Below, piece by piece: positions 1 through 7,832 of a DNA stretch of 40,153 bases. The notes beneath the pieces are model-generated. The model saw nothing but the letters and a program-made list of their open reading frames with translations, ran no database searches and was not told where the DNA came from. This DNA is from a phage: sequence record OZ335957.1; one strand, written 5' to 3'. The position numbers and the translations under genes were made by a program. How positions within the stretch are numbered: position 1 is the first letter of the stretch; each line of letters begins with the position of its first letter.

Positions 1-1764
1 TTGAGTAAAGATTTAGTGGCTCGTCAGGCGCTAATGACTGCCCGTATGAAGGCAGACTTCGTGTTCTTCCTGTTCGTCCTGTGGAAAGCTCTGTCACTAC
101 CAGTCCCGACTCGATGTCAGATTGACATGGCGAAGAAACTATCGGCTGGGGACAACAGGCGTTTCATCCTACAGGCGTTCCGTGGTATCGGGAAGTCATT
201 CATTACGTGCGCATTCGTGGTATGGAAACTGTGGAACAACCCAGACTTGAAGTTCATGATTGTGTCGGCCTCAAAGGAACGAGCCGATGCAAACTCCATC
301 TTCATCAAGCGAATCATCGACCTCATGCCTCAGCTTCGGGAACTCAAACCTAAGCAGGGGCAGCGAGATGCGGTTATCAGCTTCGACGTTGGACCAGCCA
401 AGCCAGACCACTCACCTTCGGTTAAGTCCGTTGGTATCACTGGTCAGTTGACTGGTAGTCGTGCTGACATCCTGATTGCCGATGACGTGGAGGTTCCGAA
501 CAACTCAGCGACTCAGGCTGCCCGAGACCGTCTGTCAGAGCTTGTGAAAGAGTTCGACGCTATCCTGAAGCCGGGAGGTACAATCATCTATCTGGGTACT
601 CCTCAGAACGAGATGACCTTGTATCGTGAGCTGGAAGGCCGTGGGTACACCACTACTATCTGGCCTGCTCGTTATCCACGCGACAGGAAGGACTGGCAGT
701 CTTACGGCGACCGTCTGGCTCCAATGCTTCAGGCAGAGCTTGAAGAGGACCCTGAGTCATTCTACTGGCGTCCGACTGATGAAGTACGCTTCGATGATAC
801 GGACCTTAAGGAACGTGAGCTGTCATATGGTAAGGCTGGCTTCGCTCTACAGTTCATGCTTAACCCGAACCTGAGTGATGCCGAGAAGTACCCACTGAAG
901 CTCCGTGACCTTATCGTAGCGGACTTGGACCCAGCGTCCAGCCCAATGGTCTACCAATGGTTACCGAACCCTCAGAACAAGCGTGAGGACGTTCCTAACG
1001 TTGGACTCATGGGTGACTCGTACCACACGTATCAGACTGTAGGTTCTGCCTTCAGCTCATACACCCAGAAGATTCTGGTCATTGACCCTAGTGGTCGTGG
1101 TAAGGATGAAACTGGCTATGCGGTACTGTATCAGCTTAATGGCTACATCTTCGCTATGGAAGTTGGTGGTATGCGTGGTGGTTATGAAGACTCTACGCTT
1201 GAAGCACTGGCTAAGATTGGTCGTAAGTGGAAGGTCAACGAATACGTCATTGAGGGTAACTTCGGTGATGGTATGTACCTTGAGCTATTCAAGCCTGTAG
1301 CGGCCCGTATCCATCCTGCGGCTGTAACTGAAGTGAAGAGTAAGGGTCAGAAAGAACTCCGCATCTGTGACGTTCTGGAGCCTATCATGGGATCTCACCG
1401 ACTTATCGTTAACGCTGCTGCTATCGTCCAAGACTACCAGTCGGCCTCTGATAAGGATGGTGTTCGTAACCCTATCTACTCTCTCTTCTACCAGATGACA
1501 CGTATCTCTCGTGAACGTGGAGCCTTGGCACACGATGACCGACTTGATGCGCTGGCTATCGGTGTACAGTTCTTCGTTGAGTCTATGGCTAAGGATGCCA
1601 ACAAGGGCGAACGTGAAGTAACTGAGGAGTGGCTGGAGGAGCAGATGGAGAACCCACGGAAAGGCTTCGAGTCCATCCACACTGAGTTCTGGGACAATGG
1701 GGTCCGGGTAACTCATAATACTGACGACGAGCTGGGACTAGGGTCCTACGTTACGTTCCACTAG
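1..1764 (+). CDS. 19: Terminase large subunit (T7 gp19-like), apparently full length with TTG as first codon at window position 1
   Basis: 587-aa ORF collinear with T7 gp19 (586 aa): [13 protein letters not shown], [60 protein letters not shown] motifs. Confidence 0.9.
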
Positions 1765-2060: not shown

Positions 2061-2219
2061 ATGGCAAAGACCAAAGCTGTACTTAAAGCTCTGGCGACCA
2101 ATCGAGCTACATACAGGTTTCTTGCTGCTGTTCTACTTGCTGCTGGCGTTACTGCTGGAAGTCAGTGGGTCGGGTGGGTCGAGACTCTCATATGTTCTCT
2201 GGTGTCTGAGTGTCGTTAA
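2061..2219 (+). CDS. Small hydrophobic protein (52 aa) in the gene 19.5 position
   Basis: ATG 8 nt after AGGAGGT; one predicted TM-like segment (FLAAVLLAAGVTAG); position after terminase as in T7 gene 19.5. Confidence 0.35.
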   Translation: MAKTKAVLKALATNRATYRFLAAVLLAAGVTAGSQWVGWVETLICSLVSECR

Positions 2220-2453
2220 CTCCGTAATGGTAACAATCAACGAAAGGAGGTAGTATGGACGAAGAGTCTTACGGTTCGTTCTCTGAAGAGGACTATAAGA
2301 CGGAGTGGGAATACGCCCATTGAAGACCTAAGGTCAGTTCATAGCTGACGCTACTCTACTGACCTTAGCTACTGTAGTCAAGGACTTTAGGTAACACCTT
2401 AAGAGAAGCTCACTTAGGGTCATCCTACTTATTGGTCTATCCTAGTGTCGCCT

Positions 2454-2493
2454 GACCTACGGTCCTTGACCTACAGTGGCTGTGGCCTACAGT
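2454..2493 (+). repeat. Short direct repeats (GACCTACGG / GACCTACAGT / GGCCTACAGT) left of the terminal repeat
   Basis: Three related 9-10 bp copies within 40 bp, directly upstream of the presumed genome terminus. Confidence 0.5.
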
Positions 2494-2531
2494 AGTGACG
2501 ATGAGTTTTGGACCAAAAGTTTGAGACCACA

Positions 2532-2725
2532 TCTCACAGTTCAAGAACCTCAAGTCTCCCCATAGGCCCTCTTTAAGTCCAGACCAAAGGCCCTACCCAA
2601 GTCTATCATAAGGTTAGACCGATGGTCAAGACTTCAGGTCAACGATAGGTGGTGACTATGGCTTAGGGAAGGACGATAGGTGGTGACTATAGGTCTGTCT
2701 TTGAGTCTCTATCTGTATCAGACCT
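2532..2725 (+). repeat. Presumed terminal repeat (collapsed to one copy) beginning at the genome left terminus TCTCACAGT; right boundary approximate
   Basis: ATCTCACAGTTCAAGAACC...CCCCATAGGCCCTCTTTAAG matches the conserved left-end sequence of T7/T3 (TCTCA(C/T)AGT...); region is non-coding and flanked by short repeat arrays as in T7. Confidence 0.45.
2642..2690 (+). repeat. Perfect 18-bp direct repeat ACGATAGGTGGTGACTAT x2 (2642-2659 and 2673-2690)
   Basis: Exact duplication read directly from the sequence, 13-bp spacer. Confidence 0.85.
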
Positions 2726-3449: not shown

Positions 3450-3704
3450 ATGGACACTATGAAACACTTAAGCACAATCACTAATCGCAATGAAGTATTC
3501 GTGAACACTAAAGGTTATGCGTGGATTCAGCTTAAAGAGATGAGAGGAGCGCGTCACCGTGTGGTAGTGCGCAAGGTATCAAGCAAGCAGTTCAGCAACT
3601 ACAGCGTCGATACTGTGCGTATAGACAACGAGACATACCTGATAGACTCGCAGATAACCGTGAGTACTACAGCGGGCGTCTCAGCTCCTTATTTCGCTAA
3701 CTGA
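3450..3704 (+). CDS. Hypothetical early protein (84 aa), first ORF after the early promoters
   Basis: ORF in early leader position; weak RBS; alternative start at 3459; no recognisable motif. Confidence 0.4.
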   Translation: MDTMKHLSTITNRNEVFVNTKGYAWIQLKEMRGARHRVVVRKVSSKQFSNYSVDTVRIDNETYLIDSQITVSTTAGVSAPYFAN

Positions 3705-3791
3705 GAGTGATTAACTACAGGTCGTTAGACTGATAGCGGCCTGACTGATAGTCACTAACATACACATAATTAACTTTGAGAGGATATAACT

Positions 3792-4295
3792 ATGGAACGT
3801 AATGCTAACGCATACTATGAGCTGCTGGCTGCAACAGTTGAGGCATTTATCGAGCGTATTCAGTACGACCACCTGACTAAAGATGATGACTACAGCGATG
3901 CGCTGCATGAGGTAGTAGACGGTCAGGTTCCACACTATTACCACGAGATTTTTACGGTGATGGCTGCTGATGGTATAGACCACGAGTTCGAAGACTCTGG
4001 GATGATGCCTGAAACCAAGGACGTAACGCGTATACTACAAGCTCGCATCTATGAGGCGCTTTATAACGATGTGTCTAATAGCTTGGATGTAGTCTGGTTT
4101 GAGGATGAAGAGGCAGACGAAGAGGATGAATATTGGGTAGTTGACGCTAAAACAGGCGCAATAATTGTGCAAGCTGTAGCTCTTGAGGTCGCTACTGCAT
4201 GTGCCAAGGTCAACTATGCAATAGGTCGCCACCTGAAGGTGGAAGACATCAATGATAACGTAGTGTTCGATCCTGCGGCTGAGGACTGCGAGTGA
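3792..4295 (+). CDS. ocr: Ocr-like anti-restriction protein (T7 gp0.3 DNA mimic) with about 50-aa C-terminal extension
   Basis: [43 protein letters not shown] closely matches T7 Ocr; acidic tract DEEADEEDE; RBS GAGAGG. Confidence 0.85.
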
Positions 4296-4444
4296 TGGTA
4301 ACTTATGGTATCTGCCAGCACCACGTCGCCAACGCCCGGCTTATGGTCAAGACCGGGCGGTTAACCCATGATGAGACTATGCGTCTCCTGAAGGTGGTCT
4401 ACAAGCGGCGCAAGCGTATTCACGACAGTTTGCACGCTGAGTGA
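4295..4444 (+). CDS. Hypothetical small early protein (49 aa)
   Basis: ATG overlaps Ocr stop (TGATG); basic C-terminus; below the ORF-track size cutoff. Confidence 0.3.
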   Translation: MVTYGICQHHVANARLMVKTGRLTHDETMRLLKVVYKRRKRIHDSLHAE

Positions 4445-4509
4445 TAAACGAGAGGTCACGACTGATAGGTGGCCTCAAAGATTATCACTTAAATTGATAG
4501 AGGTTAACT

Positions 4510-4599
4510 ATGAGTGTTGGACATTGGGTATGCTTATCTCCGGTCATCTTTCTGATAGCTTGGGGGATATACGACTGTATTAAACGGAAATCACTATGA
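4510..4599 (+). CDS. Hypothetical small hydrophobic peptide (29 aa)
   Basis: ATG after AGAGGT; stop overlaps next start (ATGA); hydrophobic core. Confidence 0.2.
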   Translation: MSVGHWVCLSPVIFLIAWGIYDCIKRKSL

Positions 4600-5150: not shown

Positions 5151-7832
5151 ATGAGCGTCATCTCTATTGATAAACACGACTTCTCTGATGTGTCTAACGC
5201 CATTGAGCCGTTTAACCTGCTGGCTGACCACTACGGGCAAGACCTTGCAGTCAAACAGCTTCAGCTTGAGCATGAGGCCTACACTGAAGGCGAGCGACGT
5301 TTCATCAAGAACCTTGAGCGTCAGACCGAGCGAGGGGAACTGGCAGACAATCAGGTCGCCAAGCCTTTGATGCAGACTCTGGTTCCTAAGATTGCGCAAG
5401 CCGTCAAGGAGTGGCACGAAGGTCCAGACGGGAAGCTGTCAACCTCACGTCCGAGCGTAGCGTTCACCATGTTAAGCACTGAAGAGAAGGCCGTCAAGGA
5501 CCGCTCTCTTCGCATCTCCTGCGAGTCTGCTGCGGTTATCATACTGAAGGTCATCCTCTCCAAGCTGGTCAAGCCTGAAGGTATACCGATTACACCGATG
5601 GCCTCCGCGATAGGTCGCACACTTGAGGATGAAATCCGATTCGGTCGCATTCGTGACAAGGAGAAGGAGCACTTCAAGAAGGCGATAGCTGATAACCTGA
5701 ACAAGAGAGCCGGGGCATCATACAAGAAAGCCTACATGCAAGCGGTCGAGACATCCATGCTGGAGCAAGGCCAACTAGAAGATGCGTGGGGAACTTGGAG
5801 TCCGACCGAGGCTGTCCACGTTGGAATCAAGATGCTGGAGATTGTCATACAGTCAACACAACTGGTCGAGCTTAAGCGTTACGGTGCTGGCAATGCAACG
5901 GCTGACGTTGAGATGGTCCACCTGTCAGACTTCTGGGTCAAGAAGATGGCACAACGCGGCTTCAGCCTTGCGGGTATCGCTCCAGTCTACCAACCTTGCG
6001 TAGTTCCACCTAAGCCGTGGACTGGTGTCGTAGGCGGTGGGTACTGGGCCAAAGGTCGCAGACCATTACCACTGATTCGCTTAGGGTCTAAGTCTGCGGT
6101 GGCACGTTACGAAGACGTGTATATGCCTGAAGTCTATGACGCTGTTAACATCATCCAGAATACACCTTGGAAAGTGAACAAGAAGGTTCTGGACGTGGTG
6201 AACATGGTCGAGAAGTTGAACAACACGCCTATTGATGACATCCCTCAGATGGAGCCACTGAAGCCTGAAGAATATGCGGGTGAGACTGAAGAGGAACTCA
6301 AGGCGTGGAAGAAAGCGGCTGCTGGTATCTATCGCCGCGAGAAGGCCAGACAGTCACGCAGATTGTCGCTGAGCTTTATCGTTAACCAAGCGAACAAGTT
6401 CTCTCAGTTCAAGGCCATCTGGTTCCCGTACAACATGGACTGGCGCGGTCGCGTCTACGCTGTGCCGATGTTCAACCCTCAGGGTAACGACATGCAAAAG
6501 GGTCTACTGACTCTGGCAGTCGGTAAGCCTATTGGTGCTGATGGTTTCAAATGGCTGAAGGTCCACGGTGCAAACTGTGCGGGTGTCGATAAAGTCACCT
6601 TCGAGGAGCGCATCAAGTGGGTGGAAGACAACCACGACAACATCATGGCTGCTGCTAAGGCACCGATGGATAGCATTGAGTGGTGGGGCAAGTTAGACTC
6701 TCCTTTCTGCTTCCTTGCGTTCTGCTTCGAGTATGCTGGCGTGATGCACCACGGATTGTCTTACTCCTGCTCGCTGCCGATAGCTTTCGATGGGTCCTGC
6801 TCTGGGATTCAGCACTTCAGCGCTATGCTTCGTGACCACATCGGTGGACATGCAGTAAACCTGACGCCTTCCGGTAAGGTCCAAGACATCTACCGCATCG
6901 TTTCTGACCGCATTGAGGAAGAGCTTAAAGTCCTGCTGGTTAACGGCACGGACAACGAGATGGTAACTCACGAGGACAAGAAAACTGGTGAGATTACCGA
7001 GCGTCTCAAGCTGGGGACACGAGAGCTGGCCCGTCAGTGGCTGACCTACGGTATGTCACGCAAGGTTACTAAGCGCTCAGTCATGACTCTGGCCTACGGG
7101 TCGAAAGAGTACGGCTTCGCAGACCAAGTTTACGAGGACATCGTGATGCCCGCGATTGACTCAGGGTCTGGCGCTATGTTCACTGAACCAAGCCAAGCAT
7201 CTCGCTTCATGGCTAAGATGATTTGGGAAGCTGTGAGTGTGACCGTAGTTGCTGCGGTTGACGCGATGAAATGGCTTCAGGGTGCTGCCAAGCTGCTGGC
7301 GGCTGAAGTGAAGGACAAGAAGACTGGCGAAATCCTGAAGCCTTGCCTTCCGGTACACTGGGTCACACCTGATGGGTTCCCGGTCTGGCAGGAATACCGC
7401 AAGAAGGATACCACTCGTCTGAATCTGATGTTCTTAGGGTCATTCAACCTTCAGCCTACCGTCAACAAAGGCACGAAGAAAGAGCTGGATAAGCACAAGC
7501 AGGAGTCAGGCATTAGCCCGAACTTCGTCCACTCACAAGATGGTAGCCACCTCCGCAAGACTGTAGTCCACACGCATCGCAAGTATGGCGTGATGTCATT
7601 CGCAGTGATTCATGATAGCTTCGGGACAATCCCGGCTGACGCTGAATATCTGTTCCGTGGTGTCCGTGAGACGATGGTCGAGACCTACCGCGACAACGAT
7701 GTGCTGCTTGACTTCTACGAGCAGTTTGAATACCAGCTTCACGAGAGCCAGCGCAATAAGTTGCCAGAGCTTCCGAAGAAAGGTAAACTGAATATCGAAG
7801 ACATCTTGTCTTCAGACTTTGCATTCGCTTAA
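5151..7832 (+). CDS. 1: Single-subunit DNA-directed RNA polymerase (T7 gp1-like)
   Basis: 893 aa; collinear with T7 RNAP: PFNLLADHYG, CVVPPKPWTG, WFPYNMDWRGRVYAV, FCFLAFCFEY, IHDSFGT, C-terminal FAFA. Confidence 0.98.
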   Translation: MSVISIDKHDFSDVSNAIEPFNLLADHYGQDLAVKQLQLEHEAYTEGERRFIKNLERQTERGELADNQVAKPLMQTLVPKIAQAVKEWHEGPDGKLSTSRPSVAFTMLSTEEKAVKDRSLRISCESAAVIILKVILSKLVKPEGIPITPMASAIGRTLEDEIRFGRIRDKEKEHFKKAIADNLNKRAGASYKKAYMQAVETSMLEQGQLEDAWGTWSPTEAVHVGIKMLEIVIQSTQLVELKRYGAGNATADVEMVHLSDFWVKKMAQRGFSLAGIAPVYQPCVVPPKPWTGVVGGGYWAKGRRPLPLIRLGSKSAVARYEDVYMPEVYDAVNIIQNTPWKVNKKVLDVVNMVEKLNNTPIDDIPQMEPLKPEEYAGETEEELKAWKKAAAGIYRREKARQSRRLSLSFIVNQANKFSQFKAIWFPYNMDWRGRVYAVPMFNPQGNDMQKGLLTLAVGKPIGADGFKWLKVHGANCAGVDKVTFEERIKWVEDNHDNIMAAAKAPMDSIEWWGKLDSPFCFLAFCFEYAGVMHHGLSYSCSLPIAFDGSCSGIQHFSAMLRDHIGGHAVNLTPSGKVQDIYRIVSDRIEEELKVLLVNGTDNEMVTHEDKKTGEITERLKLGTRELARQWLTYGMSRKVTKRSVMTLAYGSKEYGFADQVYEDIVMPAIDSGSGAMFTEPSQASRFMAKMIWEAVSVTVVAAVDAMKWLQGAAKLLAAEVKDKKTGEILKPCLPVHWVTPDGFPVWQEYRKKDTTRLNLMFLGSFNLQPTVNKGTKKELDKHKQESGISPNFVHSQDGSHLRKTVVHTHRKYGVMSFAVIHDSFGTIPADAEYLFRGVRETMVETYRDNDVLLDFYEQFEYQLHESQRNKLPELPKKGKLNIEDILSSDFAFA

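Follow-up and report, generated by a model that had tools for sequence, protein, structure and literature searches.

Gene 0.3 of a K1F-like phage (sequence record OZ335957.1, whose full stretch of 40,153 nucleotides was analysed and is called the window here) encodes a genuine variant of the anti-restriction DNA mimic Ocr that has two domains and is so far uncharacterised. In this variant, an Ocr core is joined within one open reading frame (ORF), by way of a polyacidic linker, to a compact C-terminal module that is lineage-specific and clearly under purifying selection. The gene and its length were already deposited with phage K1F in 2005 and are represented in PHROG 2568; it is the extra domain for which no description was found. 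With moderate confidence, we suggest that the module is an accessory protein-binding domain that modulates which host defences Ocr neutralises or triggers.

The coding sequence (CDS) was taken from the ORF list and occupies 3792..4295 on the plus strand, running from an ATG through 167 amino acids (aa) to a TGA stop. A Shine-Dalgarno sequence, GAGAGGA, lies at 3778..3784 (+), 7 nucleotides (nt) before the ATG, and a ribosome-binding site is annotated likewise in phage Pipis. The protein has an isoelectric point (pI) of 4.10, with 40 Asp and Glu residues against 10 Lys and Arg. Its first part is a helical Ocr DNA-mimic core (residues 1-104; 3792..4103, +), which keeps F54 and ends with a DVVWFE segment. 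The linker, variable in length among relatives, covers residues 105-113 (DEEADEEDE; 4104..4130, +), and the module, a compact beta-beta-alpha-beta-beta domain, covers residues 114-160 (4131..4271, +). A conserved acidic tail, PAAEDCE, completes the gene together with the stop codon (4272..4295, +) and embeds a GAGGA Shine-Dalgarno sequence (4281-4285) and a TGATG overlap. The gene coordinates and the extension peptide given in an earlier reading of the sequence, the first-pass annotation, were both accurate.

Membership of the Ocr family is supported by a profile match above threshold, strong acidity (pI about 4), the presence of F54 and a helical Ocr fold. The Pfam ocr profile (PF08684) covers residues 8-94 with a score of 103 bits (cut-off 25; E 1.3e-29), PHROG 2568, labelled 'ocr-like anti-restriction', matches residues 1-142, and phmmer aligns query residues 11-113 with residues 11-116 of the T7 Ocr chain (1s7z; E 4.9e-25). 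The first-pass annotation had the first 115 residues aligning with T7 Ocr. The homology is real, but it ends near residue 94-104: the Pfam match also stops at residue 94, and past that point the T7 alignment merely pairs acidic low-complexity runs.

T7 Ocr (gp0.3; PDB 1S7Z) is about 60% identical to the window protein over residues 17-94, with the same residue numbering, and resembles it in a pI near 4, a helical fold and a place among the first early genes. The net charge of the core over residues 1-98 is -15, compared with -16 for residues 1-98 of the T7 protein. F54 aligns with F54 of T7 Ocr, where it is needed for dimerisation and full activity (PMC9122126), and is invariant in 58 long-form sequences. 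By analogy with T7, we infer that the core dimerises through the F54 interface and inhibits type I restriction-modification (R-M) enzymes and the BREX methyltransferase by way of the DNA cleft. Ocr blocks type I R-M and BREX as a mimic of bent B-DNA, and complexes of the T7 protein are available in the PDB (2Y7C, 6R9B and 8Q56). However, T7 Ocr is 117 aa long and is without the DVVWFE segment, the polyacidic linker and the 47-residue domain seen in the window protein. The last helix of T7 Ocr runs to about residue 106 and is followed by a short acidic tail; in the AlphaFold2 (AF2) model of the full-length window protein, the last core helix goes no further than residue 94, followed by a low-confidence coil at residues 95-113.

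Beyond the core, the continuation of about 50 residues that the first-pass annotation had described as absent from T7 Ocr holds up. The extension reaches from about E113/Y114 to E167 (54-55 aa), and neither of the experimentally characterised proteins considered, T7 Ocr and SP6 Gp5 as described in PMC11341690, contains it. Full-text literature searches returned no description or experimental study of the K1F-type Ocr extension. Structure prediction, which had been proposed as a check, gave a confident compact fold: modelled alone by AF2, the extension reached a predicted local distance difference test (pLDDT) score of 90.2, with strands E6-10 and E16-21, helix H23-35 and strands E40-43 and E49-51, and in the full-length model residues 114-160 were predicted at pLDDT 81-87. 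The preceding stretch, residues 99-113, is 67% acidic and of low pLDDT. The module itself is 13% acidic with a net charge of -2, the core being 21% acidic, and this near-neutral charge makes it unlikely that the module continues the DNA-mimic surface.

Selection on the extension was assessed in a codon alignment of twelve diverged long-form genes, from which ratios of non-synonymous to synonymous substitution (dN/dS) were taken as pooled pairwise values. These were 0.20 for the Ocr core, 0.17 for the linker, 0.34 for the module and 0.08 for the last seven codons. Thus, the module is plainly constrained at the protein level, and its dN of 0.143 is 2.5 times that of the core (0.056). Conservation within the module peaks at the buried face of the helix (L131, A134, C137, A138, Y142 and G145) and at the strand-turn-strand of residues 147-161. 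The latter presents a near-invariant, exposed, polar and acidic pattern (H147..E151 D152. N154 D155.... D160 P161) across at least 120 clusters, and the aromatic residues Y114, W115 and F159 are also conserved. The exposed helix face varies (positions 132, 133, 135, 140, 141, 143 and 144), giving several allelic types. The window protein differs from the consensus, which reads E, S and D-H, in having V126, A130 and V140-N141, and in K1F gp0.3 the exposed helix face has diverged to LYEAIACAKELYEEGFH.

The last seven codons are near-invariant even at synonymous sites, with a dS of 0.077 compared with 0.29-0.59 in the other regions, which points to constraint at the nucleotide level from the embedded GAGGA site and the start of gene 0.35. 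The TGA of gene 0.3 shares the TGATG string with the ATG of gene 0.35, and in phage Pipis a ribosome-binding site is annotated within the gene 0.3 tail. The GAGGA site and the overlap suggest that translation of gene 0.35 is coupled to that of gene 0.3. Thus, the conserved EDCE tail and its cysteine may be explained by the translation signals of gene 0.35 rather than by protein function. Separate production of the module from an internal start was considered and rejected, as the extension has no in-frame Met in the wild-type sequence; the linker's GAGGATGAA stretch contains ATGs (4102-4104 and 4126-4128), but they are out of frame.

The fused architecture is widespread within one phage lineage. 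All 120 clusters (at 90% identity) listed out of 499 matches have it, in proteins of 162-179 aa, well beyond what chance would give. Searched by tblastn, the extension alone was found in 72 of 50,697 phage records; the genomes listed are all about 39-41 kb, most are named or classified as Kayfunavirus, and in every annotated record the match falls within the gene that occupies the position of Ocr. Ocr itself was matched in 574 phage records, only 74 of which cover at least 80% of the query; most Ocr homologues thus lack the extension. The closest relative noted, 'protein ocr-like' of Escherichia phage 216Ecol046PP, is 99.4% identical to the window protein, and K1F gp0.3 (CAJ29342; 169 aa in one CDS, deposited 2005) is 82% identical at 100% coverage. 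Long-form Ocr-like proteins of Kayfunavirus (PHROG 2568) share the two domains, the gene order 0.2, 0.3, 0.35 and the stop/start overlap, and are 82-99% identical over their full length, with allelic differences only. The window gene belongs to this K1F gp0.3-type long form: core, linker, module and DP..EDCE tail stand in one ORF, and gene 0.35 overlaps its end.

Natural relatives also show what the core looks like without the module. Short K1F-type Ocr proteins, such as those of VLCpiA3d (110 aa), mutPK1A2 (109 aa) and IME278 (111 aa), have a core that is 79-91% identical over residues 1-97, and they share an ending of NDVSNSSDVVW[FY]E plus an acidic run, after which the protein stops. These short forms come from Klebsiella Przondovirus (110 aa), Vectrevirus (109 aa) and some Kayfunavirus. 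The Ocr of Enterobacter phage IME278 (801..1136) ends '...DVVWFDPEEEDCE', with DVVWF joined directly to DPEEEDCE; it keeps only the DP..EDCE tail of the extension, and exactly the linker and module are missing between VVWF and VVFDP. DNA alignment points to the loss, in frame, of the stretch between GTCTGGTT(T/C)GA and GTGTTCGA, and similar octamers (TGGTTCGA / TGTTCGA) lie at its ends. The IME278 genome also encodes an S-adenosylmethionine (SAM) hydrolase and a 0.7-type protein kinase. In Salmonella phage PRF-SP5, a T7-like C-terminal helix is followed by the same 'VVFDHAAAEDCE' tail.

Further variants alter the linker or the module itself. The linker is nearly absent in Kayfunavirus CLBP1 (162 aa; 'VVWFEGEYWVVD') and tandemly duplicated in Mt1B1_P3 (241..771, 176 aa; EEEDEKAEEEDEKAEYW), which indicates that its length is not critical. 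Escherichia phage vB_EcoP_IMEP24 (362..922) encodes a 186-aa chimera that follows the long form through core and linker to the middle of the module and then continues as a different small C-terminal domain (GDTYHLAGKDFKSKDEAIRYAVELAGG...); the joint falls within the shared peptide DAIAVSR, between DAIA and VSR. This foreign domain also forms the end of a helix-turn-helix protein encoded just upstream of Ocr in the Klebsiella phage VLCpiA3d (A3d_00001, 428..766), a Przondovirus. In P0095 the module is truncated and fused to the end of gp0.35. Additionally, three metagenomic contigs from one study (Logan SRR33193082-84) carry a 1-nt G insertion in a TGGG at the first module codons (the gene lies at 2167..2680 in one of them), and the gene is thereby divided between an Ocr of 117 aa, ending ...EEDEYWGS, and a 59-aa ORF that overlaps it. 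As the insertion is seen against all other genomes, the split form is derived; the module may have been truncated in nature, or the three samples may have an error in common. Together, the deletions, splits, swaps and linker changes identify the Ocr C-terminus as a hotspot of recombination and of insertions and deletions, and they show the module to be a modular add-on that is dispensable for the Ocr core. Some Ocr-like genes carry the label 'protein kinase' (MZ398247, IME177; OM355495, ZH4; OM937123, CY1; LT594300, LM33_P1; MG004687, mutPK1A2), which is evidently a propagated annotation error.

Searches for relatives of the module outside this gene gave nothing credible. Neither Pfam nor PHROGs contained a match. 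When 1.84 billion representative proteins were searched exhaustively with a profile, only two repeat-protein matches came back, both judged spurious; the same search also missed the long-form Ocr family, whose representative at 50% identity probably lacks the module, so that fused copies standing behind module-less representatives could be missed. A word-indexed search of 5.8 billion proteins recovered just two short pieces of this gene and, unexpectedly, none of the full-length proteins, and hence was not exhaustive. Profile searches of the PDB with the module produced chance-level matches only (botulinum toxin, E 0.02; a cadherin DINDN motif; TFIIH p8), and the predicted viral structures of BFVD gave only weak matches to small uncharacterised phage proteins, the best at E 9e-3. 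The downstream ORFs of short-form phages were rejected as a source of the module, as they show no similarity beyond the tail: when the extension was compared by BLASTP with the neighbouring genes from IME278, A3d, PK1A2, PRF-SP5 and Proteus phage 309, the shared tail alone was recovered.

Several local echoes were followed and set aside. The peptide VDAKTGAI (4140-4163) recalls the last hairpin of PepSY domains below threshold: against PepSY (PF03413) only 3 of 34 members matched, at best with E 0.0018, any score shown fell short of the 24-bit cut-off, and the match was limited to the 'VDAKTGxI' hairpin. A circularly permuted PepSY fared no better, the permuted sequences giving no longer match and 21 bits at best, and a DUF2188/YegP-like domain, suggested by the sequence pattern, found no support in Pfam. 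The peptide VEDINDN (4239-4259) echoes the calcium-binding DxNDN motif of cadherins, and the PDB matches to cadherin-17 and botulinum neurotoxin type C are at chance level. Partial three-dimensional resemblance was seen to T4 Dmd and AcrIF9, and the module is similar to small phage inhibitors in size and in its alpha/beta character.

The module is near neutral, is confined to the Ocr gene of Kayfunavirus and is attached to a core that is widespread without it, and on these grounds we read it as a domain for accessory protein-protein interaction rather than as part of the mimic surface or something the structure requires. In the mechanism we propose, the Ocr core would plug, as a strongly acidic dimer, the DNA-binding clefts of type I R-M methyltransferase/endonuclease complexes and of the BREX methyltransferase. 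Two modules, tethered by floppy polyacidic linkers, would lie at the outer ends of this dimer if the C-termini point outward, and would touch a second surface, which could belong to the defence complex already bound or to some other host factor. Such a contact could alter which defences are neutralised, or could let Ocr escape or blunt the systems that sense it.

Sensing of this kind is documented: PARIS, the type III R-M system EcoR22I and Ronin all detect Ocr (PMC9122126; bioRxiv 10.1101/2023.04.06.535777), which places Ocr variants under selective pressure. Published T7 constructs are also informative. A C-terminal Strep tag leaves Ocr functional, and a T7 Ocr(1-110)-gp0.7C fusion keeps its activity against EcoKI and is about 10-fold worse against BREX (PMC7261183). 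This T7 '0.3-0.7 fusion' (Studier deletion H1), an Ocr core with a foreign C-terminal domain, arose by spontaneous deletion in the laboratory and carries 121 aa of gp0.7, whereas the domain in the window is conserved and natural. Thus, the C-terminus of Ocr tolerates additions, and an added domain can change the target spectrum. By this analogy, it is plausible that the extension alters anti-restriction or anti-BREX specificity or adds a second function, as the first-pass annotation had proposed.

Some observations weigh against a role in accessory binding. The AF2 full-length model has a predicted template modelling score of 0.42 and a low-confidence linker, and it gives no prediction of how the module is oriented towards the core. 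The C-termini of Ocr point away from the dimer interface in the T7 structure, and the placement of the modules at the distal tips depends on that arrangement. The module has no known binding partner, activity or phenotype, and its recurrent loss or truncation in nature could equally mean that its contribution is small. The T7 fusion, moreover, suggests that a bulky C-terminal addition can be detrimental to anti-BREX activity instead of aiding it, and the part added in the Ocr-gp0.7C fusion is lost under selection on BREX+ cells (PMC7261183).

Among other explanations, the one that survives best is that the module is a passenger, a remnant small early gene or a captured fragment that was fused to Ocr and has been kept by linkage and mild constraint; we consider this unlikely. 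An orphan domain without relatives that has been lost, split or replaced repeatedly in nature, that accumulates amino acid changes faster than its core (dN 0.143 versus 0.056) and that is found in the rarer form of the protein, the short-form core being far commoner and the long form occurring in 74 of 574 records, is what such a history would leave. Yet a dN/dS of 0.34 indicates purifying selection on a well-folded domain, the exposed strand-turn-strand has been kept nearly invariant across at least 120 clusters, and the only stand-alone version is a derived frameshift.

Somewhat less probable still is a structural role, in which the module would cap or stabilise the core, mediate higher-order assembly or, with the linker, lengthen the mimic, improving the same function rather than adding to it. 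The modelled last core helix ends at residue 94 ahead of the low-confidence coil of residues 95-113, the four-stranded sheet under a single helix appears from the AF2 model to leave one face open for docking or pairing, Y114, W115 and F159 could form a docking patch, and the linker is polyanionic; each of these would suit such a role. However, the same core is abundant and presumably functional without the module (A3d, PK1A2, IME278), a linker that is nearly absent in CLBP1 and doubled in Mt1B1_P3 argues against a fixed geometry, and the AF2 model shows no confident docking of the module on the core.

A more specific idea comes from the predicted fold, as three strands and one helix of the module superpose at 1.1-1.8 Å on ClpS, which has the ClpS / ribosomal L7-L12 C-terminal domain fold. 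A ClpS-like docking domain might couple the DNA mimic to a host AAA+ machine, for instance at the N-domain of ClpA, so that restriction or BREX proteins trapped by the Ocr core are degraded or the protease is jammed. We regard this as highly improbable, and its narrower form, an adaptor mimic that docks on the N-domain of an AAA+ unfoldase such as ClpA and delivers defence proteins or jams the protease, as if anything more so. The ClpS core consists of three strands and three helices, two of which build the N-degron pocket; the module has one helix, and the superposition covers half of ClpS. A common origin with ClpS was rejected, hhalign of the module profile against E. coli ClpS giving a probability of 0.2%; ClpS was also absent from the PDB profile matches at E up to 10, and no Pfam ClpS match was found. 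If bind-and-degrade were nonetheless true, the protein would do more than plug a cleft and would count as a bifunctional anti-defence factor. A weaker variant, in which the module blinds an Ocr-sensing abortive-infection system (PARIS, Ronin or EcoR22I), is likelier.

A sequencing or assembly frameshift that merged Ocr with a downstream ORF, a possibility raised by the first-pass annotation, can be dismissed with near certainty: nothing in the window favours it, and although one metagenomic lineage has split genes of 117 and 59 aa, that split is derived from the G insertion, twelve diverged phages keep one frame with in-frame insertions and deletions only, K1F was sequenced twice independently with the same 169-aa ORF, and selection at the codon level (dN/dS below 1) fits the frame.

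Ocr is a textbook DNA mimic in a layered arms race, as it blocks type I R-M and BREX and is itself sensed by PARIS, Ronin and a type III R-M system. A natural Ocr with a tethered folded domain, read as an accessory binding domain, offers a way to learn how phages shift the target range of a mimic or dodge its detection, and the natural truncations, deletions and domain swaps are ready control constructs. As K1F-like phages also serve as candidates for therapy of E. coli K1 and uropathogenic E. coli, there is practical value in understanding their main anti-restriction protein. If the module were inert, these findings would be only an annotation detail of a known gene family.

The window represents a whole genome of the K1F type (Autographiviridae, Studiervirinae, Kayfunavirus) in circularly permuted form. 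It begins inside the gene for the large terminase subunit (1..1764; PHROG 38), which is followed by about 1 kb without any ORF of at least 150 aa and then by the early genes; this stretch presumably represents the genome ends. The gene for the T7-type RNA polymerase lies at 5151..7832 (ORF list). Over the 1.1 kb around gene 0.3, the window shares 98% identity with Escherichia phages 216Ecol046PP and Pipis and 91.6% with K1F. The ORFs from about 2850 to the RNA polymerase gene yielded neither a 0.7-type kinase nor a SAM hydrolase, and K1F is arranged in the same way.

Gene 0.35 (4295..4444, +; ORF list) is a small ORF of 49-50 aa whose product matches PHROG 5058 (E 7e-25), and K1F gp0.35 sits at the same position. 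Homologues of this gene are labelled PF26807 (Phage_T7_GP04) in precomputed annotation, and a local Pfam scan gave no such match; the gene 0.35 protein may be related to T7 gp0.4.

The 0.3-0.35 gene pair is bracketed by two predicted RNA hairpins, both long and imperfect and with similar sequences (GUGAU(U/A)AA...CUGAUAG). An Rfam scan of the early region matched neither. The upstream hairpin (3706..3757, +) was found in a fold of 3700-3795, which has a minimum free energy of -24.8 kcal/mol and a z-score of -3.8 against shuffled sequences; by analogy with the R0.3 site of T7, it is possibly an RNase III processing site of the T7 type. The second hairpin (4440..4489, +), after gene 0.35, is a long stem in a fold of 4440-4580, for which the weak z-score of only -1.5 applies to the whole 141 nt, and it is possibly the RNase III site that closes the 0.3-0.35 unit.
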